DNA from: Candidatus Multivorans sp.
GTDB taxonomy: Bacteria > Acidobacteriota > Thermoanaerobaculia > Multivoradales > Multivoraceae
Direction: 5' to 3'
Assembly: GCA_965205295.1 (NCBI GenBank)
Contig: OZ242167.1
Span: 3,017,390 to 3,081,389, forward strand
Length of the DNA: 64,000 nt
The number at the start of each line of letters is the position of its first letter. The stretch's first letter is position 1. The translations under genes and the position numbers were made by a program. Below, in pieces: positions 33,833 through 60,589 of the stretch. The notes below the pieces were generated by a model. The model was not told the DNA's origin and ran no database searches. It saw only the letters and a program-made list of their open reading frames with translations.

Positions 33833-34725
33833 GACGTTCCGAGCTGGCGGTGCCGGCCAGCAACCCCAGGATGGTCGAGAAGTCGGCCGGAAGCGACGCC
33901 GACCTCGTCTTCCTCGACCTGGAAGACGCCGTCTCCCCCGAGAAGAAGGAGGGCGCGCGCCAGATCGCCATCGACGGCCTGAACGATCTCGACTGGGGCA
34001 ACAAGGTGCGCTCCGTGCGCGTCAACGACCACACCACCCGCTGGGCCGCCGAGGACATGATCAGCGTCGTCGAAGGCGCCGGCGAGAACCTCGACATCAT
34101 CATCCTGCCCAAGGTCAAACAGCCGCGCGACATCTGGTTCTTCGAGACCATGCTCGACGGCCTCGAGCTCAAGCTCGGGCTCACCCGCAAGATCGGCCTG
34201 GAGGCGCTGATCGAGGAGGCCGAGGGCCTCGCCAACGTCGAGGCGATCGCCACCTCCTCGCCCCGGCTGGAGGCGCTCATCCTCGGCTTCGGCGACCTCT
34301 CCGGCAGCATGGGCATGCGCTTCGGCCACGAACTCGACAAGGACTACCGCTACCCCGGCGACATGTGGTCCGCCCACCGCGTCCGCATGATCGCCGCCTG
34401 CCGCGCCGCCGGCATCGACGCCATCGACGGCCCATTCGGCGACTTCAAGAACGACAGGGCCTACATGAAGCAGGCCACCTGGGCCGCCACCCTCGGCGCC
34501 GTCGGCAAGTGGTGCATCCACCCCAACCAGATCCCGCTCGCCAACGACGTCTTCGCGCCGTCGCCCAGGGAGATCAAGCAGGCGCAGAAGATGGTCGATC
34601 TGTACAACGAGTCCGTGGCGAAGGGGGCCGGGGCTGGTGGTAAGGGCGGGCAGTTGGTGGATGCGGCGACGTTGCGGATCTATGAGCCGGTGTTGAAGCG
34701 GGCGAGGGCTACTGGGAGGTTGTAG
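33823..34725 (+). CDS. CitE-like CoA-ester lyase (citrate lyase beta / malyl- or citramalyl-CoA lyase family)
   Basis: RSELAVP, FLDLEDAV, ILPKV, LIE..EG, GFGDLS, IDGP, GKWCIHPNQI. Confidence 0.93.
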   Translation: MRLRRSELAVPASNPRMVEKSAGSDADLVFLDLEDAVSPEKKEGARQIAIDGLNDLDWGNKVRSVRVNDHTTRWAAEDMISVVEGAGENLDIIILPKVKQPRDIWFFETMLDGLELKLGLTRKIGLEALIEEAEGLANVEAIATSSPRLEALILGFGDLSGSMGMRFGHELDKDYRYPGDMWSAHRVRMIAACRAAGIDAIDGPFGDFKNDRAYMKQATWAATLGAVGKWCIHPNQIPLANDVFAPSPREIKQAQKMVDLYNESVAKGAGAGGKGGQLVDAATLRIYEPVLKRARATGRL

Positions 34726-35009
34726 GGAGTGGAAACCGGACCTAGGAGAATGTGGGATGGCAGAGGAACAACGCGAGCAGGAAGTGGCGGCACCATCGTC
34801 CTCCGCAAGGGTACGAGTTCGTAACTGCACCGCCCACGCGAAAGGGCAGGAGCCTCGAACGCCTGCAAAGACGGTGACAATGGCCCGACGCCAACCTCTA
34901 AGTGTCGTCGGTCAAACCGTGATAGACGGCATCGTCGAGATGCCCGCGTCGTGAATCGAGACAGTCGACGAGAGCGGACGCACGGACAGAAAGGAGGCGC
35001 CAAGACCGA

Positions 35010-35303
35010 ATGAGCCTGTACATCACACCGCAGTGCGACCCAAACGACCCTGGGTGCCGAAGCCACAAGACCCTGGAAGAAGCGTTGGAGTGCGCAATTG
35101 ACAGACTCCGGAAGAAGCTGGGCCGTGAGCCGATGTTCCGCGCACCGCTTCCCGGCGAAACACCGCAAGTAGGGGTCACCGGACTAGATGGCAGAAGGCT
35201 GTCTGACGAAGAACGACGGAAGTACAAAAGGCTCGTAGCGAAGTATGAGCCCAACACGGTGGATGACGAGGCTTCTGGAAGCAGTCATCCGTCCGATCCT
35301 TGA
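35010..35303 (+). CDS. Small hypothetical protein
   Basis: AGGAGG RBS upstream; no recognisable family. Confidence 0.4.
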   Translation: MSLYITPQCDPNDPGCRSHKTLEEALECAIDRLRKKLGREPMFRAPLPGETPQVGVTGLDGRRLSDEERRKYKRLVAKYEPNTVDDEASGSSHPSDP

Positions 35304-35373
35304 CGACGAACAGAGGGAAGTAGGTTCGCGCCGCAACATCGCACCTTCATCTACACGTTCTGCCTTACATAGC

Positions 35374-36192
35374 GTGGGATTACACATACAACACCAAGTG
35401 TACTTGGGCCATTTCTCCTGTCCGAGCCGGCCCAGTCATATCTGGATCTTCGACAAGAAGGTTGGTCAGTGGCTAGGCAATCGGGAGATTCCCATTCGTG
35501 GTGCTATGCAAGCTCCTGGTTTCTACGCGGACCAAGACGAGAAGTTCCTTGCGGGAGTGGAGGGAAACGGGATCGGCCCACTCCAGAAGCTCTGCCGCGA
35601 AGAGGCCCTGACTCCGGAGGACCGGGAAGCTGTCGCCAACTACGTAGTGGCCGCGTTCACTCGGTCCCCATGGGTCAGGCGCGCTGTCATACCCGTCGCC
35701 CAGAAGCACAAGGAAGAGCTGAAGCAGAACCTCTCGTCCTACTTGGCCGAGCGGGGCTTGCCCGATACCGCAGCGTACAGGGGAGCAGCCGCCGAGTGGC
35801 TCGATGTTCAGAACGAGGAGTTGGACAAAGGTGCCTACCGGTCACGCCACGAGAACGTGACGACCGCACCAAGTGAGTACTTTCGACACACGTTCTTCCA
35901 CTCCGCTGTTCGAGGAATGGGCTGGAGAGTGCTGCGGCGGCCAGACAGTACCGGTTTCGCCACCAGCGATAGCCCTAGCCTCCCACGGGGCCGGGAGGAG
36001 TTCCAGTTTCCACTGTCGACGAGACTGTGTCTCGTCGGTGCTAGCCAGTGGCCTAAGGGTAGTCTGAACTTCGAAGACTGCCCGGGGCGAGCTGCCCGGA
36101 TCATCAATACCAATACAGTGACCATGGCTGAGCGGTTCATCGGTTTCCACCGTAAAGCGGAATGGATACCAAGGGCCGTAGGCGGCGCTTGA
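35374..36192 (+). CDS. DUF4238-like protein
   Basis: H.QHQVYL..F N-terminus and FATSDSP...FPLSTRLCL resemble DUF4238 motifs; start uncertain. Confidence 0.65.
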   Translation: MGLHIQHQVYLGHFSCPSRPSHIWIFDKKVGQWLGNREIPIRGAMQAPGFYADQDEKFLAGVEGNGIGPLQKLCREEALTPEDREAVANYVVAAFTRSPWVRRAVIPVAQKHKEELKQNLSSYLAERGLPDTAAYRGAAAEWLDVQNEELDKGAYRSRHENVTTAPSEYFRHTFFHSAVRGMGWRVLRRPDSTGFATSDSPSLPRGREEFQFPLSTRLCLVGASQWPKGSLNFEDCPGRAARIINTNTVTMAERFIGFHRKAEWIPRAVGGA

Positions 36193-36914
36193 GCGCCGCC
36201 AATCGGGGCGGATTGGGACGCGATTGCCTCGTCGGCGCGAAGAGATTCCCCCACCGCTAGCCAGCGTATCGTCGGGGTTGACCGCGACGAGCTTCAAGGA
36301 GCGAATGCGCCACACTGCCGTTCGTCGATGTCTCGGTCCTAGGGAAGCGCGGCTACAACGCCAGCCGCTGAATGGCGCCCGCGTCGACATACCGTCCTCA
36401 TTCCTCGTTTGATCCCGAGCCTTTCGAGCCATCGGTCTCCGGGTCCCGCGCCCTCTCTTCATCTCCCCCTACATCCAACGCCTACTCGACACGGTCAACC
36501 GGCGGCCTGGACGAAGCGCGTGACCCCTTCGGGGTCGCGGGCGCGAGCGAGGTGCACGCCGTGGACGCCCTGCGCCAGGGCCTGCCTGGGTCATCCAGCT
36601 GCCGGCCGTGACGGTCGGTTCGTCCAGGCCTAGCAGGGGCAGGGGGACGATGAGGGTGGGCGTGCGGTGGCCGCTCGGCGTGGGGCCCGCGTGGACGAGG
36701 ACGCGCATGAACTCGGGGAGCGCCGCAAAGTCGAGCGCCATGTCCTAGCGCTACTGCTTCGCGGCAGTTGAAACTCCCACAGTCTGAGCGCCGTAACGGC
36801 TAGCCATACAGGGAGAGTGATGCCTCGCCGGGACGCGGGAGCGCTGCAATTGGCAGGCGAACCCAACAGCCGTGGAGCTCCCTATCCCTCCCATCGGTCT
36901 CAAGAGGACAAGAC

Positions 36915-37907
36915 ATGAACGGGAGATCCCGCGGCATTCTCGCGACAACTGTCATCTTCCTCGGACAGATCGTCGCCCCGGCGGTGTTCCACGGTCTCAA
37001 CCCGGAACAACCCACTTTCGTGGACGACATCGCGCCGATCCTCCACGAGAACTGTGCCTCCTGTCACCAGCCCGGCGAGATAGGCCCGATGGCGCTGCGC
37101 ACCTACAGTGAGGTCCGCCCTTGGGCGCGATCGATCGCTCGCGCGGTGGAGAACCGTGACATGCCTCCCTGGGACGCCGATCCCGGCTACGGGCCGTGGA
37201 AGAACGACATCAGTCTTGAGGAAGACCAGATCTCCGCGATCCTGCGTTGGGTTTCCTCCGGCGCGCCCCGAGGAGACGGCGAAGAGCCGTTGTTCGAGAG
37301 TGAGGAACGCGGCGGCGAGTGGGCGCTTGGCGAGCCCGACTGGGTCTATGAGTTCGAGCCCTACGAAGTCGCCGCGGACGGCCCTGACTCGTTCGCCGTC
37401 ATCCCGATTGAGGCGAGTTTCGAGGAGGACCGCTGGATCCGCGCCGTTGAAGTCCAGCCCGGCAACCGCGATGTGCTTCACCACTTCATCCTTTGGCGCG
37501 CCGCCCCCGGCGGCACGGTCCAGGACGCCTGGATCGATGGCTGGGCGGCCGGTGTCGCGCCGAGGGAGCTGCCGGCGGGCACCGCCCGTTTGCTGCCGAA
37601 AGGCCGCAACCTCCTCGGCGACTTCCACTACCACCCGAGCGGCACGGCATCTACCGACCAAACGAGGGTCGGGATCTGGTTCGCCGAACCGGACGAGGTC
37701 GAGAAGGAGCTGGTCAACCTCTGGATCATGAACTCAGCTTTCACGATCCCCGCTGGCGACCCGAACCACGAAGCCCGCGCCCACCACGTCTTCACCGAGG
37801 ATGTCCTCGTCCGTTCCCTGGCGCCGCACATGCACTACCGGGGCAAGGACATGAGGTACACGGCGTACCTCCCGGACGGGACCGAGCGCGAGCTCCTCAG
37901 TGTCTGA
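36915..37907 (+). pseudogene. CxxCH plus Cu monooxygenase-like paralog, truncated at the IS3 element
   Basis: CASCH, MPPW, LHH, HYH, PHMHYRGK; ends ELLSV at the IS end, whose TGA is the stop; C-terminal FNWQ/EM part missing. Confidence 0.85.
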
Positions 37908-39160
37908 GGTGGTCCCGGAAAACTGGACAGGTGGCTAAGGTGTACTCCTATCCGAGAGGAGGAGTACAGGATGAGGAAGCGCCGGAAGTTCACGGCGTCG
38001 TTCAAGTCGAAGGTGGCGCTCGAGGCTCTTCGGGAGGACCGGCCGCTGTCGGAGATCGCTGCCCGTCACAAGATCCACCCGAATCAGGTGGGCAGTTGGA
38101 AGCGGCAGGCGATCGAGGGGATGACGGAGACGTTCACGGGCAAGTCGGATGGTCGCCCGCGCGCCCACGAGGAGGAGATTCGGGACCTTCACGCGAAGAT
38201 CGGGGAGTTGACGATCGAGCGGGATTTCTTGTCCAGGGGGCTCGGGCACTAAGCCGGCCCGAGCGCCTGAAGATGATCGGCCGCGAGGACTTGGAGTTGA
38301 GCCTGAGCCGGCAGTGCCGTCTGCTCGAGGTCAGCCGTTCTTCGTTGTACTACCGGCTGAAGGGAGAGAGCGCGGAGACGCTGGGCCTGATGCGGCGGCT
38401 CGACGAGCTGTTCCTGAAGTACCCGTTCTACGGCTCTCGTCAGATGGTCCGGCACCTTCGCCGCGAAGGCGTTCGTGTCGGTCGTCACCGGGTGCGGCGT
38501 CTAATGCGTCTGATGGGCATTCAGGCGATCTACCAGGCGCCGCGGACGAGCAAGCCGCATCCGGATCACCGGAGGTACCCGTATCTGCTCAAGGGCCTTG
38601 CGATCGAGCGTCCGAACCAGGTCTGGTGCGCCGACATCACCTACATCCCGGTGCGAGGCGGCTTCCTGTACCTGGCGGCGGTCATGGACTGGGCGAGCCG
38701 GCGGGTGCTGTCGTGGCGCCTGTCGAACACGTTGGACGCTTCGTTCTGCGTCGAGGCCCTCGAAGAAGCCCTGGCCCGGTACGGCAAGCCCGAGATCTTC
38801 AACACGGACCAGGGCAGCCAGTTCACCAGCTCGGACTTCATCGAGCGTCTCTGGCGTTCACTCAAGTACGAGGCGGTCTACCTGCACGAACTCCGCGACG
38901 GCCTCGAGGCCCGCAGGATCCTCGGCGAGTGGATCACCTTCTACAAACGCCGAGCGCCCGCACTCGGCGCTCGGCGGCAGTACGCCGATCGAGGCGCACC
39001 GCGAAGGCCGTCCGGACGCGGCCGTCAGGCACGAGCCGACGGCCGCGGACGATCCGCAGAATCCACGTTTTCCACAGCCCCGGCGGCGGGCTGCTTGATC
39101 AACCATGGAAGTACACCTTAGCCAGGCCGCCATGCTGTCCAACGAACCGGGACCACCTCA
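37905..39160 (+). mobile_element. IS3-family element with an internally deleted orfB
   Basis: IRs TGAGGTGGTCCCGGAAAACTGGACAG / rc TGAGGTGGTCCCGGTTCGTTGGACAG; GTC on both flanks; orfA 37971-38252; orfB WCADITYI...NTDQGSQF...IERLWRSLKYE. Confidence 0.93.
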
Positions 39161-40008
39161 GTCTGCCTGCTCGGGCGAATCCGACTCTTGGGCTTCAGCG
39201 GGGAGTATAGCGAGAACGAAGGTGCGCCAACTTGCCCCCGCACCACCTCCCGAGGCTCCGGTTGGGAGCCGAAGGGAGTAGTTCGACTCCTTGGAGGGAG
39301 GCGACGGTACACGATTCCCCAAGACGGTATGCCTGCCGGAAGAGCGGCGCACCGATCGGGCTGGGTGGCGACTCGGCGGGGCAGTCGGCTCGGAGGAACC
39401 TGGAGTCGAGTCGCAGTGGGCGGGTCGGCTGGCGTCCGTGTTCGGCGAAGGCGAGGGCGGGGTCGGAGACCGCTCACCAGCTCGGTCGAGGACCTGTCGG
39501 TCTTCGCGCTTGGTGCCGAGCATGACCTCCCCGCAGGGCTTGAGGGGCCAGACGTCGGCTCTCTGGAGGCCGCTCAGTAGTCGAGTGGCGAAGGAGGGGC
39601 ACCGGTTCTAGGCACAGCGACCCACGCCGCGACATATCTCCTGCGCGCTTCCCTAACTGTCTGGCTCGCCGGGTCGTCAGGCTGGTCGGGCTCAGGTGCT
39701 CCGAGTTCCCTGGCGTCAGAGCGTGCGATCTCGGCCTAGGCAGCCCCTATCTCGTCCGTGACCACGGCCGTTAGCTCGCGCTCGTCCTCCTGGGCCAGCC
39801 TCGGTTCTCGCTCGACCAGCCAACCCCTCATGAGCGCAGCCAAATGCTGGATCGGTTTGGAGCAACTCCTGTTGTAGGTCCTCCACTCGTGCCTCCTCCC
39901 CTTTTGGGTGTGCCGAATCGTCATCGTACGTCGTTTGCTGCCCACACTGCCGTGAGCCCGCCCACCTATACCGGCAGGCTTTCTGCATCGAGCCGCCGCG
40001 CGACGGCG

Positions 40009-40530
40009 CTAGTCGCGGCCTCCAGTCAGCGATTCGACACTGAAGCTCTCTTCGATCTCTCGCACTTGGTCGGCCACCTCCTCCAGGTCCGCCTGCCATA
40101 CCTCGCCGTCCTCGAACCGGACCTTCGAGACATAGGCCACGCCGGTGTAGAAGGATGACTCCGCTAGTGCACTTGCCAGCCACGATCCTTCCTCGATGCT
40201 GGCGGGAGCGACATCCTCAATCGAGTAACCCCCAAGACGGTCCTGGAACTCGTTGAAGATGTTGAACGACAGCAATCCGAGTTGGTAGGCGACGATCTTC
40301 CGGTCCGTCACGTTCTCTACGACGACTTCGTGACGTATGCCCTCGCGCGAGTACCGGCCGCCCGACCGGTAGGCCGCCGAATAGGGGCCGATCTTGAGTG
40401 GTGCGCCTTCTTGTGCTAGCACTCTGTGTTGCGCCGGCGGTGGCACCGCAGCCACGTGGCCAGCGCCGGCCATCAGCATGGCCACAGTGATCATCGACGC
40501 CGCGATCTTCATCTGCTTCATTGAATCCAC
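40009..40530 (-). CDS. Secreted hypothetical protein
   Basis: Signal peptide; ...VSKVRFEDGEVW. Confidence 0.7.
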   Translation of the reverse strand: MDSMKQMKIAASMITVAMLMAGAGHVAAVPPPAQHRVLAQEGAPLKIGPYSAAYRSGGRYSREGIRHEVVVENVTDRKIVAYQLGLLSFNIFNEFQDRLGGYSIEDVAPASIEEGSWLASALAESSFYTGVAYVSKVRFEDGEVWQADLEEVADQVREIEESFSVESLTGGRD

Positions 40531-40633
40531 CGTTCTGCTTCTTCGTCCTACAGACCACGCCCGCCCCGAAGCGGTGGCGGGCGCGGCGACTCTCGGACCG
40601 CGAACCTTAGGCGCTACGACCCAGTTTGGCTAG

Positions 40634-42139
40634 CCCTGATTTGCGAGAAACTTCACGCACGGATGGCGTTTGCGATGGCAAGGAAATGGGTGGCGACGGC
40701 AGGCGAGTTGCCGAGATGTAGCGTGGTCTTCCCGGCGGGTCTCAGGAGGAGGGCGGCTCGGCCGAGCAGTTTGAAGCGGAGCGTGTGGATGCTCTCGAAA
40801 CGTCTGAGACTTCGGCGCTTGCGGTTGGTGTTGCGGGCCGGGGCGAGGGTGTGGGCCTGAAAGGCTCGGGAGAGGTTGAAGGCGAGCACGCTGAGCATCT
40901 GCCAGGCGGCGTTGGCCTGCTCCTCGAGGCTCGGCACACAGTCGAAGGCGAAGCCTCCCTTGAGTTCGGCGTAGGCCTTCTCATGGCTGCCGCGGCCGTT
41001 GTAGAAGTGCCACAGGGTACGGCCTTGGACGCGCTTGTTGGTGGTGATGGCCGAGTACTCGTAGTGGCCGTCGGCCGGGTCAAAGAGGTCGAGTTGGAAG
41101 TTCTTCCGGGTCTTGTGCGCGACCTTGCGCCGGTAGAGCACGATGCGACGGACCCGGCCCCAGACCGGGAGCCGGATCTGGTAGCAGCTGGTGCGGTCAT
41201 CGATGCGCATCCAGGAAGCTCTGGCCGCCACCTGCTTGAGGTGGAGCCAGGGATAGAAGGGGACCTTGATCGCGTACTCGACGCCCGCGGCGTCGAGGAC
41301 CTTCAGCACGTCGTTGCGGAAGAAGGCCCCATCCATGCGGAGTTCCAGGGTGCGGCGCCTGCCCACCGCAGCGTGGACCTGCCGGATCAGGGCCTTGAGG
41401 AAACCGACGGCCGCCTTGCCGTCGTGGATGTTGCCGGGACGGTTCAAGAGCCGCACGATCTGCCCCTCCTGGGCCTCGTAAGCGGTGATCGGGTAGTAGC
41501 TGGGGACCTTTCGGCGGTGGGGATTGAAGCCCCGGCGCGCCCCCTTCACCTTCAGCCCGGTGCTGACCACCGAACCGTCGACGTCGAGAGTCAGTCGACG
41601 CCCGCCGGTCCGTCGCAAGGCGTCCCCGACCAGCTCCTCGTTGAGCTTCGAGAGCCGTTCGACGTCCTCCTTGCGGATCTTGTGCATCCAGGCGCTCGCC
41701 GTTCGGGTCGACGGCAACCTCGAAAGCCCGCCGAAACGGGCCAGGATGGGGTCGGCCTGCTCGTAGCGCAAGTGCCAGATCCGCCTGCCGCCGACCAGGA
41801 TCAGGCCCAGCAAAGTCAAGAGCATGGGCACGGCGCCGAAGTCGGTGGCGGGGAATCCCGAACCCACGGCGCGGCGGAGCATGGCCGGGAAACCGCTTCG
41901 TTTCAGGTACTCCCGAACCAGCTCGAGTCCGGCATGCGACGTGACTTCCTGCCGCCCGGTTCTGTAGTCCACGTTGCCGTTGACACGCCGCTTCAAATCT
42001 GCTCTTCTAGATCGCACTGGGAGTGGCCTTTCGTCGATGGGTCTTGTGATCGATTCCAACCACGAGAATATCCCATCCCGCAAGGCCCTCCCGGCCTTCA
42101 CCTCAGGTCAAACTAACGCATTGTTCCTGCAAATCAGGG
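40634..42139 (-). mobile_element. IS1380-family element (transposase about 40653-42017)
   Basis: IRs CCCTGATTTGC / GCAAATCAGGG; TSHAGL, LDVDGS, GFNPH, RMDGAF, YNGRG..E...ELK. Confidence 0.92.
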
Positions 42140-42167
42140 CTAACTAGCTAAATCGAAAGAAGGCTCT

Positions 42168-42983
42168 ATGGCACTCTTCACGTCAGTCCAGACACTTCTT
42201 CTGCTCTTTCCTCTGGCCACCAACACCACGGACGATGTTTCTCAACTGTGTGCCAGCGAGCAGGCGCTTGTGGGTCAGTACAAGCGGCCCTCTAGACGCA
42301 CCGTCGCAGCGTACGACCGTCTTCTCGAATGTCTCATGCGTGAACAGACACTCGCAGATCAGCGCGCAGTCTCGATACAGAAGTTCGCGCCCCCTTCTCC
42401 GGCCGCTAGCAGGAGTTTCGATGCAGCCGACAACGCTGTCGTTTCCCTTGAGAAGCGGATTGTTGAGACCGAAATCGGCAAGAAGGATGCGAAACTCTAC
42501 GTGGACCTCTCAGGCTGGGGGTTCGGGATGGCGGCTGTCCATGGCAGCGGCCGTGTTACGGCTGCCGAGATCGGATCGGATCGCATCGTCCGGGCAACCG
42601 AGACCGCAGACCGGGAACTACGGCCCACCGCGGTATATGCCCCCTTCTTCCATGCAGGAAAGGACAGCAAGAGGAACTTCGGGGTAGGACCACTCGTAGT
42701 CGCGAGCGCCGATCTCAACGCGCCATTCGAGGACAACCTTCTTGAGTCAGCAAGTCTCGGCATTGGCCTGATGTTGAATTTCCGTGTATCTGAAGTCACA
42801 GGATCCACTTTGGGAATCGGCGTCGCCTACGCCCTAGACGGGAAGAAGGAGCTTCTGCGTGAGGACTTTGAGGTTGGGATGCCAGCGCCACCAGGCTACA
42901 CCGAGCCGGTCTTTGTTGAGAGGTCTACCAACGTGTGGATGTTCGTTGTTACGTTCTCGAAGGGCAATGCTAACAAGCCCTGA
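42168..42983 (+). CDS. Secreted / outer-membrane hypothetical protein
   Basis: Signal-like N-terminus, beta-strand-rich C-half, lower GC. Confidence 0.65.
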   Translation: MALFTSVQTLLLLFPLATNTTDDVSQLCASEQALVGQYKRPSRRTVAAYDRLLECLMREQTLADQRAVSIQKFAPPSPAASRSFDAADNAVVSLEKRIVETEIGKKDAKLYVDLSGWGFGMAAVHGSGRVTAAEIGSDRIVRATETADRELRPTAVYAPFFHAGKDSKRNFGVGPLVVASADLNAPFEDNLLESASLGIGLMLNFRVSEVTGSTLGIGVAYALDGKKELLREDFEVGMPAPPGYTEPVFVERSTNVWMFVVTFSKGNANKP

Positions 42984-51444: not shown

Positions 51445-52856
51445 CCTCGCAGATGGCGCCGCATTCTCTGCTGTCGGAGCCTAAGCTGGCGTTTCATACA
51501 GAACGGCCCGGCCACCTGCACCTCCATCCGCTCAGGGGGCTATTGGAGTACGGTCCGCACTCCGCCAACTTCGTTCCTGACCCGATCCGGGTCGCTACAC
51601 TTGCGCCATCTGGCGGCAGTGGAAGGCTCTATGGCTTTATGAGAGAACTGAGGCAGGAGTTCCGCCCGACAGAAAGAAGGGACTATCTTCCTAGCTGGCC
51701 CGGTTTCGCAACAGTCTTTGGGCTTCGCATGGAGGGCGCCGGGGGTGCCTGCCATGCGGAGACCGCCGACGACCTCGAAGCGCAGCTACGTACCACGTCC
51801 CAGCCGCACGTCATGCTGGCGCAGCACCTAGTAAGGGCGATCGGTCGACTCGAAGCACACCGAAGCGAGTTCGACGTACTCTTCGTTCTTCTGCCTCGGC
51901 GCTGGGAGGCCGGCTTCGTGGGTGAGGACGACGATTTCGACTTGCACGATCACCTGAAGGCATACACTGCAGCCCGTGGAATTCCCGTTCAGTTCGTGCG
52001 AGAAGACCGTGCACTCGCCTATCCCTGCCGGGCGAGTGTCATGTGGCGAATCGGCCTTGCCATGTATGCGAAGGCAGGTGGAGTGCCGTGGAAACTGGCT
52101 GAGTCCGACCCGGAAACAGCCTACATTGGCATATCTTACGCCCTACGGCCCGTCGACTCGGGTGGCCCGCGGTTCGTGACGTGTTGCAGTCAAGTCTTCG
52201 ACGCCGACGGAGCGGGTCTCGAGTTCGTGGCCTACGACGCTCACGAAGTAGAAGTCCGCAGGAAGAACCCTTTTCTCTCCCGAGCCGAGATGTTCCGTGT
52301 CATGACGAGATCTATGGACCTCTACCGGCGGAGACATGCCGGTCGGTCGCCTCGCCGTGTCATGGTTCACAAGACGACAGAGTTCAAGCCGGATGAAGTC
52401 GACGGTTGTCTTGACGCGCTACATCTTTGTGAGACCGTGGACCTTGTGCAAGTCGTGGAGCACGTTGGGTGGCGTGGCGCCCGAATCAACCCGCCGGCTG
52501 GGACGGGCAAAGGAACTCCTGCCAACTATCCGGTTGAACGCGGCACGGTCATTGGCTTGGGCCCCCGCGAGGCGCTGCTTTGGACACACGGTAACGTGCC
52601 TCGCGTGACAAACCGGTCCTACTTTCAGGGCGCACGGAGCACACCCCGCCCGATACGATTGGTGCGGTACGCGGGCCACGGACCCTGGGACGACACTGCG
52701 CGTGCGATCCTGGGCTTGTCCAAGATGAACTGGAACAACGACGCACTCTACGATCACTTGCCCGTGACCCTCTCCTACGCGAAGGTGCTGGCAAGAGTCG
52801 TCAAGCGGATTCCGGCGTTGGGATCGGCTCCATATCAGTTCCGGTTCTTCATGTAA
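51441..52856 (+). CDS. Short prokaryotic Argonaute (MID-PIWI, catalytically inactive)
   Basis: EPKLAF, PLRGLLEYGP, DLHDHLK...Q, YAKAGGVPWKL, AYIGISY, VHKTTEF, LSKMNWN, PVTL.YA. Confidence 0.93.
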   Translation: MTSQMAPHSLLSEPKLAFHTERPGHLHLHPLRGLLEYGPHSANFVPDPIRVATLAPSGGSGRLYGFMRELRQEFRPTERRDYLPSWPGFATVFGLRMEGAGGACHAETADDLEAQLRTTSQPHVMLAQHLVRAIGRLEAHRSEFDVLFVLLPRRWEAGFVGEDDDFDLHDHLKAYTAARGIPVQFVREDRALAYPCRASVMWRIGLAMYAKAGGVPWKLAESDPETAYIGISYALRPVDSGGPRFVTCCSQVFDADGAGLEFVAYDAHEVEVRRKNPFLSRAEMFRVMTRSMDLYRRRHAGRSPRRVMVHKTTEFKPDEVDGCLDALHLCETVDLVQVVEHVGWRGARINPPAGTGKGTPANYPVERGTVIGLGPREALLWTHGNVPRVTNRSYFQGARSTPRPIRLVRYAGHGPWDDTARAILGLSKMNWNNDALYDHLPVTLSYAKVLARVVKRIPALGSAPYQFRFFM

Positions 52857-53420
52857 GTACTCCTCTGAATTGGCCGCGCTTTATGGCGATCAACCGGAAC
52901 GGCCGCAGACTCCCCACCATCAAGTACGGGCACGGCACGGGTGGTACGAGCCCCCGTTTCGACCTCCCACTGGGCGAGGCCTGCTGCTCGAGTTTGAGGA
53001 TGAGGCTCTAGTATATGATCTCCCTTCGCCCACCCGGCCAAGGGGGCGCGCGTTGATCCCGTAGGCATCACCCTGCAAGCACCCTAGTGCCTACCTTGAC
53101 CAGCGGTCCACAGTCTTTAGAGCGAGTGAGAAGGAGCGTGAGGTGTTGGCAACGCTCGGAAACTGAGCCACCCAACGTTTGGAAAGTGAGCCACCGCGGC
53201 CGTGTTGAGTGTACGCGAATCTTCTCTCGTCGGTCCCCTTTGAGTCAGTGGCCGTAGTGGCTGCGGTAGCTGTGGGAAACCGGTCTGCCGGTTTTCCAAG
53301 GCGGTGCGGGAAACGGTCTGCCGTTTTCCGCGGCGCCGGCAGCTTCCGCAGCCGGCCGGCGGTGCGGTCCGCTCAGCGGCGGCGCCGCGGCGGTTCGGTT
53401 GCGGGTGTTGGGGTCCGTAT

Positions 53421-54173
53421 TCACGAGGTGCTTCTCGACAGCCGTGTCCGATAGGAGGACCCCTTGGTGGCAAGGATGTGGGCGTGGTGGGAGAGGCGGT
53501 CGAGCAGAGCGGTGGTCAGCTTCTCGTCGCCGAAGACCCGGACCCATTCGGAGAAGGCGAGGTTGGAGGTGACGATGGTCGAGCGGCGCTCGTAGCGGTC
53601 GGCGAAGACGTTGAAGAGCAGCTCGCCGCCGGCGCGGTCGAAGGGCACGAAGCCGAGCTCGTCGCAGATCAGGAGATCCACCCGCTGAAGCCGCTGCTGC
53701 AGGCGCCCCAGCTCCCGCTGATCGCGGGCTTCGATCAGATCGCGGACGAGATCGGAGGCCTTGCGAAACCAGACCCGGTAGCGGCGCTTCGCGGCCTCGA
53801 TACCGAGGGCGATCGCGAGATGCGTCTTGCCGGTGCCGATGGGTCCGACCAGGACGACATCGTCGCCGCGGTCGATGTAGTCGCAGGAGGCCAGCTCGCG
53901 CAGCTTCGGTTTGGAGACGCCTTGCAAGGCCTCGAAGTCGATCTGTTCGAGCGTCTTGTGGTCGGGGAAGCGGGCCGCTCGCAACCGGCGCTCGACGGTG
54001 CGGGCCTCACGATCCCGGATCTCGGCCTCGAGCAGTTGCCAGAGGTAGTCCTCGTAGTCCCACTGTGCGTCCTGGGCCTGACGGGCCCTCTGCTCGTAGT
54101 CGCGCAGCACGGAAGGCATCTTGAGCGTCTTGAGGCCCTCGGCGATGACGGCTCTGCGTGCGGCCCGGCTCAC
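53421..54173 (-). CDS. istB: IS21 helper ATPase
   Basis: [30 protein letters not shown]. Confidence 0.93.
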
Positions 54174-55612
54174 GATGCCGCCTCCTGAAGCAGCACGTCG
54201 AAGTCGGCGGCTCTGGCGCTCTCGACCTCGTGGCGCCGGAGCGGCTCCGGCACCTCGATCACGGCGGCAGGACGCCGCTCGACGAGCCCCAGCAGGTCGA
54301 AGCGGCCGGCGGTCAGGGCCTCCTCCAGTGCGGCGGCGACCTCCTCGCTGCCGTGGTCTGTGACCACACTCAACAGCTTGGCGAAGAGCCGCGCCGTCTC
54401 CAGGGCACCGTGCCGCAACTCCAGCATTCTCCATAGCTTGCGGTACGCAGGACCGAGCTCTGCGAGCAACTCCGGGGCCACCTGGCGCACCGCCTGAGGC
54501 TTCCTGGACAGCTCCTCGAAGTAGTGCGCGTAGCGCACCAGGCGCTGTCCCGGCCGCACAAGGTCGCAGCGGTACTCCTCGTCGCGGCAGGTGAAGGTGA
54601 TGTCGCTGGCGCCGACGAGGGCGTGGATATCGAGGCTCTTCCAGCGCGAGGGAACCGAGTAGGTCGCACCGCCCAACTGCACCGTCGCCTGGCGCGACGC
54701 CCGCACGATCTTGAGCTTCCTTGCCTCGAAGCCGGCCGCCGGCAGCTCTCGCAGTGCCTCCTGCTCCTCCTCCCACCGGGCGCGCTCACTGTGCGCGGCG
54801 TCGACCAAAGCCAGCACCTCGCCTGCGATCTGCTCCAGAGTGCGCCCTTGGGGCACCGGACTCATGTGCGCCAGGCGGATCCCCTTGCCCCGCGACTCCA
54901 CACTGCCCTTGTCGTGGCCCTCGCCGGGGCGGGCGAAGCACGGCTCGAACAGATAATGGCTCACCAGCGCCTGGAATCGAGCCGTCAACTGACGCTCGCC
55001 GCCGACCCGACGACGCACCGCCGCGCTCAGATTGTCGTAGACCAGCCGCAGCGGCACGCCGCCGAAGTGAGCGAACGCCCGCACATGGCCGTCGAGAAAC
55101 GCCACCTGGTCGCACCGGTCGTACAGCCACACGAACGAACGGCCCGAGTACGGCAGGTGCAGCAGAAACTTCCACACCCGGTGCGCCACGCCGTCCTCCT
55201 CCACCGTCACCTCGAAGAAGTCCACTTGGCCGCACTCGCCGGCACGGTGCACCAGCGGGATGAACGTCTCCTGCCGCTGACGCTTCCACTCCCGCACGTA
55301 GCTGCGCACCGTCGTGACCCCGGCCTCGTACCCCTCCTCCAGCAACTGGCGATGCAGACGAGTAGCCGTCAGACGCTGCTTCGCCGTCGTCCGCCGAGAC
55401 CACCTGCGCAGCAGCTCCTCCAGACGCGGCGCCACACGCTCCGTCACCCAGCGGCGCCGCGGCTTGCTCTCCACCCGCCGCGGCTCGCTCTGATCCCTGT
55501 ACTTGCGCACCGTATTGCGGCTCACACCGTGCCCGCAGGCCACCGAGCGCTGGCTCCGACCCTCCACCAGCACCTGGTACCGAATAACATGAACCTGATC
55601 CATCCTCAGCAA
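54170..55612 (-). CDS. istA: IS21 transposase
   Basis: N-terminal HTH, QVDF, YDNL, KGSVE. Confidence 0.93.
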
Positions 55613-55750
55613 GTCCTTCCTCCGATCGCGTTGGTCTACTGAACAAGACCAAGCTACCGGTGTCAGGGCCGAGGGTGGATCACTTTCTGCCCGTTGAGTG
55701 GTTCAGTTTCCGAGCGATGCCTCCACCGAACTCGTGTCCCTGGCCCTTGT

Positions 55751-56072
55751 CCCGGCGAGACGTGGTCCGCCCACCGGGTCCGCATGATCGCCGCCTGCCG
55801 CCCCCGCCGGCATCGACACCATCGACCGCCTCTTCGGCGACCTCCGCAACGACAAGGCCTACCTGACCCAGGCCACCTACGCCGCCACCCTCGGCGCCAT
55901 CGGCAAGTGGTGCACCCATCCCGACCATGTCTTCGCGCCGCCGCCGAGAGATCAAGCAAGCTCAGAGGACGGTCGATCTGTGCACGACGCCTCATGGCGC
56001 AGGGGGCTGGGGTTGCCGGCAGGGTGGCAGTTCGTCGAGGTGCTGGCTGGAATGCCCGGGGCCGGCGGCTAG
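55751..56072 (+). repeat. citE 3'-end copy 3 (most degraded)
   Basis: TGGTCCGCCCACCGGGTCCGCATGATCGCCGCCTGCCG matches about 34365 onward, with indels. Confidence 0.88.
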
Positions 56073-56109: not shown

Positions 56110-56940
56110 CTAGAATTCAATCTCTAACAGTACGTTGGCAGAGGCTTCGCCTGCATCTACTGTAAACTCATTCATTCCCTTGCGAAAATGTTTAGAAAGC
56201 CCCTTGAAGTCAACTTGACCTATGTCCTCTGTGAGAGGAACAGGGATAGGCTGAATGTCCTTCCCGTTCACAGCGGAGACGTAGGCGCTGTCGGTTCCTT
56301 CGGGCGAATTCTCGAACAACAGAGGCAACGTCTTTATCTTTCCTTCTGTGTTAATGGCGTCGTAGAGGACGGTTACGGTGAACTGTGGCTCACTTAGGCG
56401 TAGCGCCGGAGCCTTGCGGCTCTCTACCTCTATGTCTACAGGTATTGACGCCTGCGCGTCAAAGACCACTCCGCGATCAAGAAACGCTTGTTTACCTTTG
56501 ATAAAGATGAGAGGCCATGCAACGACAGCCGCTAGAGCGATAGAAACCGATTTTCGACCCTTACCAGACCGGTCATATCCACCGCGTAGGTTTACCGTAG
56601 TGCCGTCGACGGCCTCGACAGTGGTTGACTCCACTTCTAGCTTGCCTTTGATTCCGGCCATTTTTGCTCTCTTCGCTTTGCTGATCTTTGACCAAACTAC
56701 GGTTCCTGCTTCGATTACAATGCGTCCGTCTACGACGACGTCATCAGCGACTAGCGCTCTAACGTTCTCGCCTTCTTGTACGAATGAACTCAGCTTTCGC
56801 TTGGTGGACAAGTCTTGATCGAGCACGCAATAGATAGTGGTTCCCGCAGGAATGCGTACCGTCTCGGCAGTCAAGACGAACGGAACGAGGGCGATCATCA
56901 GAGCGGCAATCGCTGTCCGCGCTGGCTGTCTGTGGTGCAT
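56110..56940 (-). CDS. Secreted hypothetical protein, AT-richer
   Basis: Signal peptide; IPAGT, V.EG..V...V..DV.VDG...I.AGT, GKLE; TrbI-like beta pattern. Confidence 0.7.
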   Translation of the reverse strand: MHHRQPARTAIAALMIALVPFVLTAETVRIPAGTTIYCVLDQDLSTKRKLSSFVQEGENVRALVADDVVVDGRIVIEAGTVVWSKISKAKRAKMAGIKGKLEVESTTVEAVDGTTVNLRGGYDRSGKGRKSVSIALAAVVAWPLIFIKGKQAFLDRGVVFDAQASIPVDIEVESRKAPALRLSEPQFTVTVLYDAINTEGKIKTLPLLFENSPEGTDSAYVSAVNGKDIQPIPVPLTEDIGQVDFKGLSKHFRKGMNEFTVDAGEASANVLLEIEF

Positions 56941-57149
56941 TGTGGTTGCTCCTGTGGGTGGCCCGGCGTGCCGGGTGGTTGCTCGGCTGGAACGGTAGCA
57001 CAGGAGGCTTGAAGATGAACGAGGAACAGCTAGCGAAAATCCGGGGCCTGTTCGACCCCCCCGGCCTAGACGAGGGGATCGAGGGCGCGGTGCCGCTTCG
57101 TGTGTTGACACGCTCGGAGCCACAGTGAGCGCAGCCCGGAGCGGAAGTC

Positions 57150-57452
57150 TTCACTGACGAGCACAGTTCCTATACGCGCATGGATCGCTACCGGCATGAT
57201 GCGGTGGCTCACGGCGTGGGCGAGTTCGTGCGGGGGAAGGTGCATACCAACAGCGTAGAGAACGCTTGGAGCCTGCCAAAGCGGACCTACCACGGCACGT
57301 ACCACAAGATGAGTCCCATGCACCTTCACAGGTACATCACGGAGTTCGAGGGCCGGTACAACGACCGACAGCTTGTTACGATTGAGCAAATGGAGAGCAT
57401 GGCCCGAGGAATGATCGGCAAGCGCCTCCAGTACAAGGAGCTAGTGGCATGA
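57150..57452 (+). mobile_element. IS1595-family transposase C-terminal remnant
   Basis: H..V.H...E.VRG.VHTNSVEN.WS..KR...GTYH.MS..HL.RY..EF. Confidence 0.85.
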
Positions 57453-57749
57453 GTGAAGTGAGTGTGGATAACGCCACCTTCTTGGCTGTAGTCGGTTTGC
57501 TTCTGGTCGCACTTTCAATGGTGTGGTCAGAGTTGTGGCCCGACCTAGAGCGCCTGTATCTGTTTCTCCTTCTGTTTCCAAAAGCCATAGGAATAGAGCG
57601 TTCTTATCTCTATCTCGCCTATTGTACAGGCAAGCTCACGCGAAGGCGGCTCAGGCTCCAGACCCAAGCGGCGAACGTGAGGCTGCCCAAGCCCCGCAAC
57701 CCTTCGCCGACGAGGTCGATGGCCCGCTACTACGGCTCGCCCGCAAACC

Positions 57750-58686
57750 GCCCACAATCGCACGCCCCGGCGCAACCCCCTCCACCGTCTCGCCGTCACG
57801 CACCACGAACACGCCATTCACCATCGTGTGGCGGATCCCCTCCGAGAAGGAGAGCCCGCCTTCGAACGTGGCGGTGTCGATCACCGTGTCCGGGTCGAAG
57901 ACGACGATGTCCGCGTCGGCGCCGACCTGGATCTTCCCCTTGTTTCTCATCTGATCGGACATCGACGCCACGCGCCGCGCCGGGAGGAAGCTCATCTTCA
58001 GGAGCGCGGTCATCAGGTCGAGCGTGCCCCGCTCGCGGACGTAGCGCCCCAGAACCCGTGAGTAGGTGCCGGCCGTTCGAGGGTGAGCCTTCGGGGCATA
58101 CGGCATGCCGTCGGACGCGACGATCACCCAGTCGTTCGCGAGCGCCATCTCGATCCACTCTTCCTGCATGAAGTGGAGGATCACCGTTCCCCGCTCGCGG
58201 CGATACCGCTCGAAGGTCTCCTTCGTCAGCCTCTCTCCCGTTGCCTCCCACTGCAGGTCGCCGTAGCCGATGCCCAGGCGGTCCTGCCAGCCTTCGTCGA
58301 AGATCGACGAGTGAAGGGAGGTAGATCCGGCCGTGTAGGGATACGCCTCCGTCGTCACGTCGAGCCCCAAGCGGCGCGCGCCGCCGATCAGGTCGAGCAC
58401 CGTGTCGATCTCGCCGAGCGCCATGCTGTTGACGTGCACGATGTGCAGGGGCGCCCCGGTACCGACCGCGTTGGCGAGGACTTCCTGCATCGCATCGATC
58501 GTCATCGAACGCACGTGCGTGTGGATGGTGGCGCGCTTCTCGCCGGCGAAGCGGAACACTTCGACGATCTCCCGGCGGCTCGCGCCCGGGTGGTACTGGA
58601 CGGCGAGGCCGATCCCCAGGGCGCCTTCCTCGAGTCCCTGGTCCAGATGCTCCAGCATGGCCGGGAAACGTTCGGGCGGCAGTTCC
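57750..58686 (-). pseudogene. Duplicate 3' portion of the amidohydrolase gene
   Basis: Matches about 61380-62317; 5' part missing and replaced by the citE fragment. Confidence 0.92.
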
Positions 58687-58687
58687 T

Positions 58688-59011
58688 CGCCGCCGGCATC
58701 GACGCCATCGACGGCCCGTTCGGCGACTTCCGCAACGACAAGGCCTACATGAAGCAGGCCACCTGGGCCGCCTCCCTCGGCGCCGTCGGCAAATGGTGCA
58801 TCCACCCCAACCAGATCCCGCTCGCCAAGGATGTTTTCGCGCCGTCGCCCAGGGAGATCGAGCGGGCACAGAAGATGGTTGACACCTATACAATGAATCG
58901 CTCAAGGCGGGCGCCGGCGCCGGCGGCAAGGGCGGCCAGCTCGTCGACGCGGCGACGCTGCGGGTTTTTCAACCAGTGCTCGACAGGGCGCGGGCGACGG
59001 GGAGGTTGTAG
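58688..59011 (+). repeat. citE 3'-end copy 4
   Basis: AAGIDAIDGPFGDFRNDKAYMKQATWAASLGAVGKWCIHPNQIPLAKDVFAPSPREI...GGGAGGTTGTAG. Confidence 0.93.
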
Positions 59012-59016
59012 TTCCT

Positions 59017-60543
59017 ATGCGCCACGTAATTGTTCCCATGGCTGGATTTCTCGGCTTGGCGGTTTCCGGCTGCGTCTCCACACAGTCCACACAGAGTGCG
59101 GATCTGCCCGAGGCGGAGAACCACGCGGCCCATGATGCCGGCGTCGGCGCCGTTCAGACCATCTACTACCGGGCCGGCGAGGGGTTCGTCCCGGCTCGCC
59201 TCGACGTGGAGACCGGAACCCGCGTGGTCCTGGTCAACGAGTCCGCCGACCAACTCGCACCCCAGTTCGGCGTCGCCCAGGGCGATTCACCCTCGGGAGG
59301 AGAGACGGATCATCACGGTGCACACGGCGCGCACGGCTCGGGCCACCACTCCGATGCCCCTGCCTGGAACTCGGACGATCCGCATCCGGACAGCCACGGC
59401 CGCGAGTGGGCTCACGCGTTCAACGTCAGCGGCTACTGGCGCTTCCACAACGATCTGAACCCGAGCCACACCGGCCTGATTGTGGCGCTGGCCCCGGCCG
59501 GCACGAAGCTCGAGCCCCTGGTGGTCGAAGGACAGGCTCTCTCGTTCCCCGAGGCGCCGGCGCTGACGCCTGACGAGTACCGTGAGCTGCTGCAAAATAC
59601 CGAAGCCGTACGAGAGTTCATGAAGGCGTACGGCCCGCACAACACTCTGGGGGTGCTGCGGCAAGCCGAAGTCGAAACCGGTCTCGACTGCCATCAGAGT
59701 GCGCACCACCTGGGGCGGATGACGTTCGCGGAGTACGGCGCCGCGGCTTCCATCAGCGTCGAGGAGGTCTGCAGGTCGGGTATGCGCCACGGCATGATGG
59801 AGCAGCTCTTCGTCACTCGTGGCATTACCAACCTGGCCGAAGACGTCGAGGTGTTGTGTCCCTCGGAAGTCGACTCCTTTTCCCGGCACCAGTGCCTTCA
59901 CGGAGTCGGTCACGGCGTGATGGCCTGGACGGCCTATGAGATCGAGGATGCCCTGCAGCTCTGCGACCTCATGAGCGATGAGTCGAGCCAGCGTTCGTGC
60001 TACACCGGAATCTTCATGGAGAACGTGGTGAGCGGGCTGTCCGGTGAAGTCGGCCAGAGCTCCGCATACGTCGATCACAACGACCCTCACTATCCCTGCA
60101 ACATCCTGGACGAGCGTTACGTCGACGACTGCTACTGGTACCAGACGTCGCAGATGCTCGTCGTCTTCAATCGTGACCTGGAACTCGTGGCCCAAGCCTG
60201 CCAGGAGGCGCCGCCTGTTGCCCGCAGGTCGTGTTTCGGAAGTTACGGCCGCGACCTGAGCGGCATCCACGGCAGGAGTCCCCTCACCATCGCCCACTAC
60301 TGCGGTCTGGCGCCCAGCGTTCAGTATCGCGGCGCCTGCATCGATGGCGCCGCGCGAACGCTCTTCTGGGAAGAGACCCAGCAGGATGCAGGCCTCGTCC
60401 TCTGTGCAGCAGTGGAGGATCCACTGCTCTCGGAGAGCTGCTACGAGTCGATCGTCGGGCAAGCTCACATGGTCGTAACCGACCTGGAGCCGTTCTGCGC
60501 CAAGGTCCCCGACCGGTGGCGGGATTGGTGCAGGAGGCGGTAG
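59017..60543 (+). CDS. Lipoprotein with a cupredoxin-like, His-rich N-domain and Cys/His-repeat C-domain
   Basis: Lipobox VSGC; GF.P..L.VE.GT.V..VN, G.WRFHN; CH..AH..G, C.SG..HG, C.HG.GHG, CYTGIFMEN. Confidence 0.75.
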   Translation: MRHVIVPMAGFLGLAVSGCVSTQSTQSADLPEAENHAAHDAGVGAVQTIYYRAGEGFVPARLDVETGTRVVLVNESADQLAPQFGVAQGDSPSGGETDHHGAHGAHGSGHHSDAPAWNSDDPHPDSHGREWAHAFNVSGYWRFHNDLNPSHTGLIVALAPAGTKLEPLVVEGQALSFPEAPALTPDEYRELLQNTEAVREFMKAYGPHNTLGVLRQAEVETGLDCHQSAHHLGRMTFAEYGAAASISVEEVCRSGMRHGMMEQLFVTRGITNLAEDVEVLCPSEVDSFSRHQCLHGVGHGVMAWTAYEIEDALQLCDLMSDESSQRSCYTGIFMENVVSGLSGEVGQSSAYVDHNDPHYPCNILDERYVDDCYWYQTSQMLVVFNRDLELVAQACQEAPPVARRSCFGSYGRDLSGIHGRSPLTIAHYCGLAPSVQYRGACIDGAARTLFWEETQQDAGLVLCAAVEDPLLSESCYESIVGQAHMVVTDLEPFCAKVPDRWRDWCRRR

Positions 60544-60551
60544 CCGGCCAG

Positions 60552-60589
60552 CCGGTCCTGGACGGGCGCGGGCGACCGGGAAGCTGTAG
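60552..60589 (+). repeat. citE extreme 3'-end copy 5 (about 38 bp)
   Basis: CCGGTCCTGGACGGGCGCGGGCGACCGGGAAGCTGTAG versus CCGGTGTTGAAGCGGGCGAGGGCTACTGGGAGGTTGTAG. Confidence 0.7.

Follow-up and report, generated by a model that had tools for sequence, protein, structure and literature searches.

A few bacterial loci are known in which an intact gene is followed by a row of its own truncated copies, and others in which conserved flanks enclose an ever-changing content. For the Rhs loci, homologous recombination through a circular intermediate is proposed in the relevant passages of one study (PMC2935791), while for the effector-immunity clusters of the type VI secretion system (T6SS) of Vibrio the passages of another propose homology-facilitated illegitimate recombination (PMC5361080). 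Exchange through homologous flanks is proposed, in the corresponding passages of a third study, for core defence hotspots (cDHS1 of Pseudomonas aeruginosa; PMC10250203). Here we analyse a stretch of 64,000 nucleotides (nt) of the sponge-associated bacterium Candidatus Multivorans sp., positions 3,017,390-3,081,389 of contig OZ242167.1 (the window), in which the 3' end of a citE-like gene (HpcH/HpaI aldolase / citrate-lyase beta family) recurs several times behind the intact gene, as an array of truncated copies (tails) and unrelated cargo genes. Our reading, to which we give a probability of roughly 60 %, is that the stretch between citE and a convergent amidohydrolase gene is a recombination hotspot free of integrases, where displacement driven by recombination would stack and exchange cargo by means of the general recombination machinery.

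Candidatus Multivorans is a group of Acidobacteriota known from metagenome-assembled genomes (MAGs) of sponges. The genome that contains the window (labelled G000) is a closed, single-contig genome of 4.81 Mb and, like all the genomes compared with it, is metagenome-assembled. The genus sample comprised 42 species genomes, and the locus was mapped in 27 relatives. A literature search found no paper on this locus or on this feature of the genus.

The likeness to the orphan arrays of the Rhs, CdiA-CT/CdiI, MafB and T6SS loci, as these are described in the passages of the sources, is close: behind an intact gene, and on its strand, lie 5'-truncated fragments of its conserved part, variable in length and each with a different module, the boundary between the conserved and the variable part is sharp, and there is no integrase. 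In those arrays, however, the variable part is, according to the same passages, an in-frame toxin tip with its immunity gene, and selection acts on the diversity of toxin and immunity, which is not the situation behind citE. Here, it is a complete metabolic gene that is conserved, with the boundary at its stop codon; the genes carried as cargo stand alone and are unrelated to one another (SPARSA, CBASS parts, TIR/HEPN, reverse transcriptase, toxin-antitoxin pairs and metabolic genes); and fragments of the gene on the opposite flank are repeated as well. By analogy, the citE locus would work like an Rhs/T6SS orphan array without belonging to that class, because its variable part is not an in-frame toxin tip.

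With cDHS1, as far as the passages of PMC10250203 describe it, the locus shares conserved core flanks, a highly variable and defence-rich content, and the existence of many occupied sites without a mobility gene. Most of the 27 mapped relatives keep the flanks and have unrelated content, including defence genes, between them, as is typical of core (defence) hotspots. Repeated fragments of the flanking genes are not mentioned in those passages, whereas in the citE locus they record the events, and the left boundary is sharp to the nucleotide.

Repeated citE ends in the window and across the genus

The intact citE-like gene lies at 33829..34725 on the + strand (Pfam PF03328, E 4e-35), and its stop codon is the left edge of the variable region. 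A self-BLASTN with positions 33801-34800 as the query against the window returned three further copies, all on the + strand: tail A (49195-49460, 266 nt, 84.6 % identity, E 3e-81), tail B (55751-56038, 311 nt, 77.8 %, E 4e-67) and tail C (58685-59011, 327 nt, 83.8 %, E 4e-98). A repeat finder added a fourth copy of 26 nt (60564-60589, 88 %; family D8), which alignment with the citE ends of relatives lengthened to about 45 nt (tail D). Thus, the two methods bear out an earlier note on this DNA, made by a model from the letters alone, which had reported that the citE 3' end is repeated four more times on the + strand. No copies of citE were found elsewhere in the genome: there were five matches overall, the fifth being an unrelated match of 45 nt, and a genome-wide search for the 19-nt end motif of citE, allowing up to 3 mismatches, matched only citE, tail A and tail C.

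Tail A (49195..49459) corresponds to citE nt 640-897, stop codon included, and is a decayed pseudogene copy. Tail C (58685..59011) corresponds to nt 573-897, again with the stop, and has one 2-nt frameshift, while tail D (60545..60589) consists of the last ~45 nt, including the stop, of a citE allele of the tail-C type. Tail B (55685..56040), the most decayed of the copies, is truncated on both sides. It extends from citE nt ~460/526 to nt ~861, its start being earlier at the protein level (55685, citE amino acid 154) than at the DNA level; its last ~36 nt and the stop are absent, the DNA homology stopping at about citE nt 861 (~56038 in the window). The earlier statement that all the copies run to about the same stop codon is therefore correct for tails A, C and D and fails for tail B. 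The three tails that reach the stop codon are direct repeats of the 3' end of a target gene, a feature of integrase-borne islands at gene 3' ends. Overall, the repeat units of the array range from ~45 to 327 nt in length.

The pattern extends over the genus. A citE tail is present in 39 of the 42 species genomes, and extra tails occur in at least 16 of them (G000 included, counted among the matches listed), two more genomes being ambiguous; G056 has seven citE matches, and G052 has three full tails ~10 kb apart. The window and the loci of the 27 relatives together contain 65 citE matches, 19 of them full and 46 partial; 11 of the partial matches are primary genes cut by the ends of the loci, which leaves 35 true fragments. 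None of the 54 fragments and full copies is inverted. The 5' ends of the 35 fragments are scattered over citE nt 177-861, and most copies retain the 3' end.

The amidohydrolase gene, which in the window is complete, convergent with citE and forms the right core flank (61361..63013, - strand; Pfam PF07969 and PF01979), is found downstream of citE in most relatives, often along with additional truncated copies of it that retain the 3' end and have variable 5' ends. The core that recurs in the relatives consists of citE, the amidohydrolase, a gene of the beta-lactamase family and a pair of SRPBCC and alpha/beta-hydrolase (abhydrolase) genes, and the intervening content varies from genome to genome. 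As a separate observation, G055 (loci L030, L035, L114 and L115) contains two full copies of the whole four-gene operon, ~23 kb apart; in the copy with the conserved context, citE has a foreign last third and a truncated amidohydrolase gene lies just 64 nt behind it, so that this copy looks like an 'empty' site.

It should be considered whether the array is an artefact of assembly, in which variants from several strains of one metagenome were linked together. The genome is indeed metagenome-assembled, and related strains are present in the same runs, as a rise in depth at 59-63 kb shows. However, the copies are just 78-85 % alike, far below the similarity expected of strains, and arrays are present in at least 16 of the 42 species genomes, which were assembled independently and in many cases are closed. 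The unique cargo blocks have an even depth of ~45 in the best run, and error-free public contigs span tail B with both its flanks (55672-57843), tail D with both its flanks (60174-60833, a contig of 660 nt without differences) and the end of tail A into the SPARSA genes (49277-53173). In addition, the block composed of the tail A end and SPARSA was found at ~98.6 % identity in a run of another study. An artefact of this kind is extremely unlikely.

Origin of the tails and the junctions beside them

In a maximum-likelihood tree of citE nt 573-897, the citE allele of G000 itself grouped with those of G016, G052 and G056. Tail A fell in a 100/99 clade with the alleles of G010, G021, G048, G020, G005 and G018. 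Tail C joined a third group, which includes copy 1 of G055, G011, and the second copies from G004 and L072. Judging from these placements, tails A and C are of foreign origin, i.e. they are alleles of other lineages and not local copies. This agrees with the proposal in the earlier note that incoming DNA carries its own allele of the citE tail.

The differences by codon position are 14/7/30 between tail C and the citE gene of G000, and 5/6/23 between tail C and its nearest sampled allele. The bias towards third positions and the single 2-nt indel imply that tail C left a working gene recently, and it diverged under purifying selection, as functional orthologues do. Tail A (11/9/14, with 7 indel columns) and tail B (14/15/18, with many indels) are older relics. 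Primary citE genes can be mosaic, too: identity to G000 in successive thirds of the gene is 96.3, 94.3 and 84.5 % for G055 copy 1, the copy in the conserved context, and 96.0, 90.0 and 84.5 % for the primary gene of G047.

Two of the tails adjoin fragments of other genes of the locus. Tail C is joined to the inner end of an amidohydrolase 3' fragment with its open frame kept (57716..58684, - strand), which is a second, diverged allele of the gene at 61361-63013; the inner point of the amidohydrolase is fused to citE nt 573 with a microhomology of at most 2 nt. This fragment (970 nt) is 88 % identical to the full gene of the same genome and 92 % identical to the copies of G016, G056 and G049. 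Tail A is abutted by a 5' fragment of the alpha/beta-hydrolase gene (48887-49192, 306 nt, 93 % identical to 43799-44112), fused to citE nt 640. Both junctions are head-to-tail, in that a point which normally lies downstream is fused to a point inside citE, and each of them was found in G000 only (1 of 42 genomes). A scan of metagenome contigs for a 32-nt string over the amidohydrolase-tail C junction gave no match, a result of little weight since only exact matches were sought. The earlier note, which overlooked both fragments, had described the repeated units as pieces of one housekeeping gene acting as 'att' units; this description is too narrow, because pieces of the amidohydrolase and abhydrolase genes are repeated as well.

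Comparable junctions exist in other species. In seven relatives, the 3' end of the abhydrolase gene is joined directly to a citE fragment that starts at nt 516-555, and this junction is common to several species with different cargo behind the tail, as is predicted by a spread mediated by circles. G047 has a fusion of cargo position 1782 to citE nt 861. We also observed in the array of G047 (L123) a segment of ~540 nt, corresponding to positions 1565-2105 of the G045 locus and present in six or more same-strand copies over 18 kb.

Head-to-tail junctions are also what a purely local process would produce, that is, ancient tandem duplications of the segment from citE to the amidohydrolase, followed by divergence, partial deletions and the activity of insertion sequences (ISs), with no foreign alleles involved. 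A duplication of the whole operon does exist in G055, and ISs are numerous. Against such a process, tail A is nested (100/99) inside the primary alleles of other species instead of lying outside all the primary genes, tail C shows the pattern of purifying selection even in comparison with its nearest sampled allele (5/6/23), and the amidohydrolase fragment is nearer to the copies of other species (92 %) than to the gene of its own genome (88 %). Moreover, the SPARSA and low-GC cargo blocks are found in no other species of the genus, and primary genes are mosaic. We therefore regard a purely local origin as very unlikely.

Recombinases, the stop-codon boundary and a proposed displacement mechanism

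Recombinases were searched for with six-frame profile searches (PF00589 for tyrosine and PF00239 for serine recombinases). No PF00589 match was found in the array of G000 or in those of 10 relatives (0 in 11 of 11 arrays); genome-wide there were 8 matches in G000, and 48 and 38 were listed for the two groups of five relatives, all of them outside the arrays. PF00239 had no match in the whole G000 genome, and neither profile matched in the window. There was no recombinase among the 30 first cargo open reading frames (ORFs) tested, and there were no phage or conjugation genes among the cargo scanned. The absence of an intact integrase from the window, as stated in the earlier note, thus holds for tyrosine and serine recombinases, although several DDE/rve transposases of ISs are present. 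The four tail ends share no common fold (DNA folds, z-scores +1.30, -0.62, +0.20 and -1.94), and no palindrome was seen by eye in the end of citE.

These results bear on the comparison with integrons. The citE locus resembles them in having a same-strand array of mostly small cargo units behind a fixed point, and ~60 % of the first cargo genes are co-oriented with the upstream operon. It differs from them in that there is no intI, there are no attC-like folds, the repeat units are very unequal and age shows no gradient away from the array's head. The term 'integron-like', which the earlier note had applied to it, is hence appropriate only in a loose sense: integrases are absent from all 11 arrays checked, the tails have no common folded site, the 5' ends of the fragments vary from nt 177 to nt 861, and decay is unrelated to distance.

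Islands at tRNA and tmRNA genes, phage 21 and e14 at icd, and the staphylococcal cassette chromosome (SCC) at rlmH combine a recombinase with one fixed crossover point, and phage 21 and e14 bring a replacement tail for icd. The citE locus has in common with these islands direct repeats that reach the gene end, tandem accretion and repeats that are diverged alleles. The tails might accordingly be read as attachment scars of islands or prophages that targeted the citE 3' end, brought a replacement tail and later lost their integrases by deletion; direct repeats reaching the 3' end of the target gene are typical of such elements, and the tails are diverged alleles. However, tyrosine recombinases are missing from all 11 arrays, phage and conjugation genes are lacking in the scanned cargo, the tails begin at many points over nt 177-861 instead of at one crossover point, and their left ends are joined to fragments of downstream chromosomal genes and not to the ends of elements. 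This origin of the tails seems improbable to us.

A Tn7-like element was considered as well and rejected, since the only transposase with rve and Mu-C domains, the one next to tail B, is part of an IS that a related strain lacks and lies away from the stop codon, and the cargo starts share no end motif. Overall, the features that define integrons, integrase-borne islands and Tn7-like sites are missing from the citE locus.

When the 400 nt behind each of 50 citE copy ends were compared, 31 unrelated downstream classes were found. Wherever two downstream sequences are related, their similarity begins at base 1-3 after the stop codon, which implies that the intergenic DNA can be aligned when it is homologous. 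Together with the extra tails in at least 16 of 42 genomes, the 31 classes confirm, genus-wide, that the site behind citE is a hotspot, as the earlier note had supposed. The amidohydrolase side is not sharp, a spacer of 20-70 nt being common to many copies. Among 34 class representatives, 20 have G as the first base, a modest excess, and the cargo starts have no other motif in common. Several genomes have minimal tails, just 33-57 nt long, whose left ends fall at citE nt 841-861: G000 (tail D), G047 together with G012 (locus L058), G050, and G021. The sharp boundary at the stop codon, with its 31 cargo classes, is not accounted for by known recombination models.

A site-specific system acting in trans, for which the last 35-45 nt of citE would be the attachment site, could explain this boundary. 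Insertion would take place exactly at the stop codon, the short repeats would be the borders of cassettes, and the long tails would be the result of separate accidents. The start of 31 cargo classes 1-3 bases past the stop, with no comparable sharpness on the amidohydrolase side, points in this direction, as do the minimal tails in several genomes, a 60-nt insertion exactly at the boundary in G044, and the precedent of the SCC arrays behind rlmH in staphylococci, whose cassettes may lack a recombinase of their own. On the other hand, there is no candidate enzyme (tyrosine recombinases are absent from all 11 arrays, serine recombinases from the G000 genome), the citE end motif occurs nowhere else in the genome, the cargo starts share nothing apart from the first-base G, the tails have no common fold, and two of the short tails go back to one inherited event. 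All considered, a system in trans is rather unlikely. We think it unlikely, too, that a cassette-capture system without a cis integrase uses the last 35-45 nt of citE as its landing site and inserts exactly at the stop codon, with the long tails as its by-products; if this were true, it would be an integron-like function built on a housekeeping gene and an unrecognised enzyme, and the cargo could be expressed by read-through from the citE operon.

The mechanism that we favour is displacement by recombination. DNA from the same locus of another lineage would enter the cell, bringing with it part of that lineage's citE and the cargo that follows the stop codon, often along with part of a gene from the downstream side of the locus. 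This DNA would pair by homology with the resident citE, and its other end would be joined illegitimately inside or behind the resident gene (homology-facilitated illegitimate recombination, possibly Ku-dependent). Alternatively, a circle might form first, by recombination between tails in a donor array or by end-joining, and a single crossover of the Campbell type would then insert it. In either case, the intact gene would go on working with a partly foreign 3' end, and the older 3' end would be displaced downstream as a 5'-truncated tail with its own cargo attached. Repetition of such events would build an array of tails and cargo on one strand, the tails would offer portable homology for further loop-out, exchange and insertion, and ISs would insert into the array later.

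Displacement of this kind accounts for the direct orientation of the tails, their variable 5' ends, their joints with downstream genes of the locus and the lack of recombinases; it also accounts for the shared abhydrolase-citE junction, with the same cargo on the left and different cargo on the right. G000 encodes Ku, ComEC and DprA, which makes end-joining and DNA uptake plausible, and Ku was matched in only 1 of 14 control genomes. The earlier note had suggested Campbell-type integration or homology-facilitated illegitimate recombination; the head-to-tail junctions fit these suggestions, and the mechanism itself is something that we infer, as are the order of the events, the route by which the DNA would have entered, and whether it came as circles, linear pieces or both. 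It may be added that the Ku domain of G000 (G000:C1:2650320-2650862) lies in an open frame of 896 amino acids, much longer than the usual bacterial Ku, which may be a fusion, e.g. with parts of a ligase or polymerase.

Several points weigh against displacement as the whole explanation. It makes no new junctions between a stop codon and cargo, and yet 31 unrelated sequences start 1-3 bases past the stop; moreover, relative to G007, the 60 extra bases of G044 sit exactly at the boundary. The contrast between the sharp citE side and the shared spacer on the amidohydrolase side hints at a site-specific component. Decay of the tails does not follow their distance from citE, tail C being the freshest and tail B the most decayed, so that simple head-first stacking fails, and one has to assume the import of ready-made arrays or crossovers at internal tails. 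Competence genes are near-universal and are no proof of uptake, and no circle, excision product or transfer was observed. Finally, public contigs are short, and among the 32 of 1873 pieces listed none bridges the junction at tail A (49195) or that at tail C (58685).

Cargo, neighbouring genes and implications

The cargo calls of the earlier note mostly hold when checked against Pfam, PADLOC and the translations: the DUF4238 gene, the SIR2-APAZ and short pAgo pair, the Phd-VapC pair, the Cys/His-rich lipoprotein and the low-GC protein were all found. Cargo block 1 (34726..49194, + strand) lies behind the intact citE and contains, according to Pfam, a DUF4238 gene (35245-36192), a cytochrome-c-like gene (36915-37907), an IS3-type HTH transposase (37971-38252), a DDE_Tnp_1_4 transposase (40653-42101, - strand), an SRPBCC/AHSA1 gene (43344-43766), the alpha/beta-hydrolase gene (from 43675, its homology with relatives stopping at ~44690), a DUF5655 gene (45302-46213), a 1.6-kb rve IS (46346-47945, - strand) and a DDE_Tnp_1 IS fragment (47946-48807). 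The SRPBCC-abhydrolase module (43198-44690) is near citE in most relatives. Its edges, at 43198 and ~44690, are sharp, and the SRPBCC/AHSA1 stretch (43198-43766) is 94-96 % identical across most of the genus, compared with 87-92 % for its neighbours.

Cargo block 2 (49460..53206, + strand), behind tail A, is a defence pair of the SPARSA type, made up of SIR2-APAZ (49645-51444; PADLOC Aga_SIR2-PNTD1-PNTD2, E 2e-168; Pfam SIR2_2) and a short pAgo (51441-52856; PADLOC pAgo_I, E 1e-197; Pfam Piwi), and it is private to G000 (1 of the 42 genomes of the genus). A secondary IS insertion follows (53207..55615, - strand), with a transposase at 54170-55612 that has rve and Mu-transposase-C domains (Pfam); we take this element to be IS21-like. 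A contig of a run from another study joins 53206 directly to 55616, the IS being absent, and this IS-free joint is the only one used here, because other listed contig joints with short sides of 20-30 nt may reflect repeats or other strains. A related copy of the IS is present in G048. To the left of it, a stretch of ~65 nt (53140-53206) is a multi-copy repeat, 84-97 % identical, scattered over G000 and at least 10 relatives, and may be a small mobile repeat or an IS end. One of the ISs of cargo block 1 has copies with 100 % identity elsewhere in the genome. For this reason, and because the IS at 53207-55615 is absent from a related strain, the ISs are best regarded as probable late arrivals and not as the builders of the array.

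Cargo block 3 (56110..57452) comprises a low-GC gene (56110-57123, - strand) and a fragment of an IS1595-type transposase (57180-57452, + strand); the GC content of 56001-58000 is 0.579. The protein encoded by the low-GC gene has an internal hydrophobic, signal-like stretch and is probably secreted, and the block has no counterpart at this locus in any other species of the genus. Cargo block 4 (59017..60543, + strand) begins 5 nt past the stop of tail C and is a gene for a lipoprotein rich in Cys and His, with the lipobox LAVSGC in its translation. It had no Pfam or PADLOC match, and homologues with 72-91 % identity adjoin the amidohydrolase in G016, G052 and G024. Cargo block 5 (60632..61333, + strand) contains a Phd antitoxin (60669-60902) and a VapC/PIN toxin (60921-61325; Pfam). 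The left edge of this module, at a palindromic operator, is the same in five relatives (G016, G049, G053, G054 and G009), in which its contexts differ; in G049 (L111), the module is preceded by an internal piece of citE, nt 177-251. PADLOC assigned no known defence family to the DUF4238 and DUF5655 genes, to two ORFs at 42168-43720, or to the lipoprotein and low-GC proteins.

Across the genus, the 30 first cargo ORFs, taken from 26 classes, include Cap15, ThiF/JAB, TIR+HEPN, a reverse transcriptase, a NucS-like nuclease and a weak SMODS match, the others being metabolic and transport genes and one IS transposase. Altogether, the defence cargo includes SPARSA, Cap15, ThiF/JAB, TIR+HEPN, reverse transcriptase and Phd-VapC.

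On the left, the core flank is a CoA-transferase family III gene (32570..33832, + strand; Pfam PF02515, E 6e-107), the upstream operon partner of citE, which is 88-92 % identical in relatives; citE itself is full-length there, at 86-96 % identity. On the right, the amidohydrolase is followed by a gene of the beta-lactamase family (63014..64000, + strand; Pfam PF00144, E 2e-57), which extends past the window and is present in relatives too. The variable region continues beyond the right end of the window (G000:C1:3083179-3089814), where there is a second Phd-like copy, 81 % identical to 60645-60902. The same region holds copies of two pieces of cargo block 1 (36501-36746 and 39436-39569); these are adjacent there and in ~30 relatives, whereas within the window their order is swapped and they are 2.7 kb apart.

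A whole-genome self-comparison aimed at tail arrays at other genes was swamped by giant repeat-protein genes and tandem paralogues, and it provided leads only. Same-strand diverged repeats were noticed in two other regions of the genome (G000:C1:3576188-3600625 and 2995010-3014677). One of them, probably a group of integrative elements in tandem, has three tyrosine recombinase genes within its repeated modules; the other, just upstream of the window, has repeats of 88-93 %.

Outside the phylum, the citE genes of gammaproteobacterial sponge symbionts (Candidatus Azophilus and Pseudomonadales MAGs; L061-L068) have 70-72 % protein identity to the acidobacterial citE, the next-best matches being at 44-47 %. 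At the protein level, this likeness may point to gene transfer between phyla that share the sponge habitat. No extra citE tails were found at loci L061-L068.

How defence islands are assembled at core-gene hotspots without genes of mobile elements is an open question. At the citE locus, each event left a scar, consisting of a dated and allele-typed piece of a flanking gene and a precise junction, so that the history of the hotspot can be read and compared across ~40 species. By analogy, the displacement logic of polymorphic toxin loci would extend to free-standing cargo, including SPARSA, CBASS parts, TIR/HEPN and toxin-antitoxin pairs, which suggests that cassette traffic can use the end of any conserved gene as portable homology. 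The sharp boundary at the stop codon, in turn, provides a concrete lead for a new mechanism.

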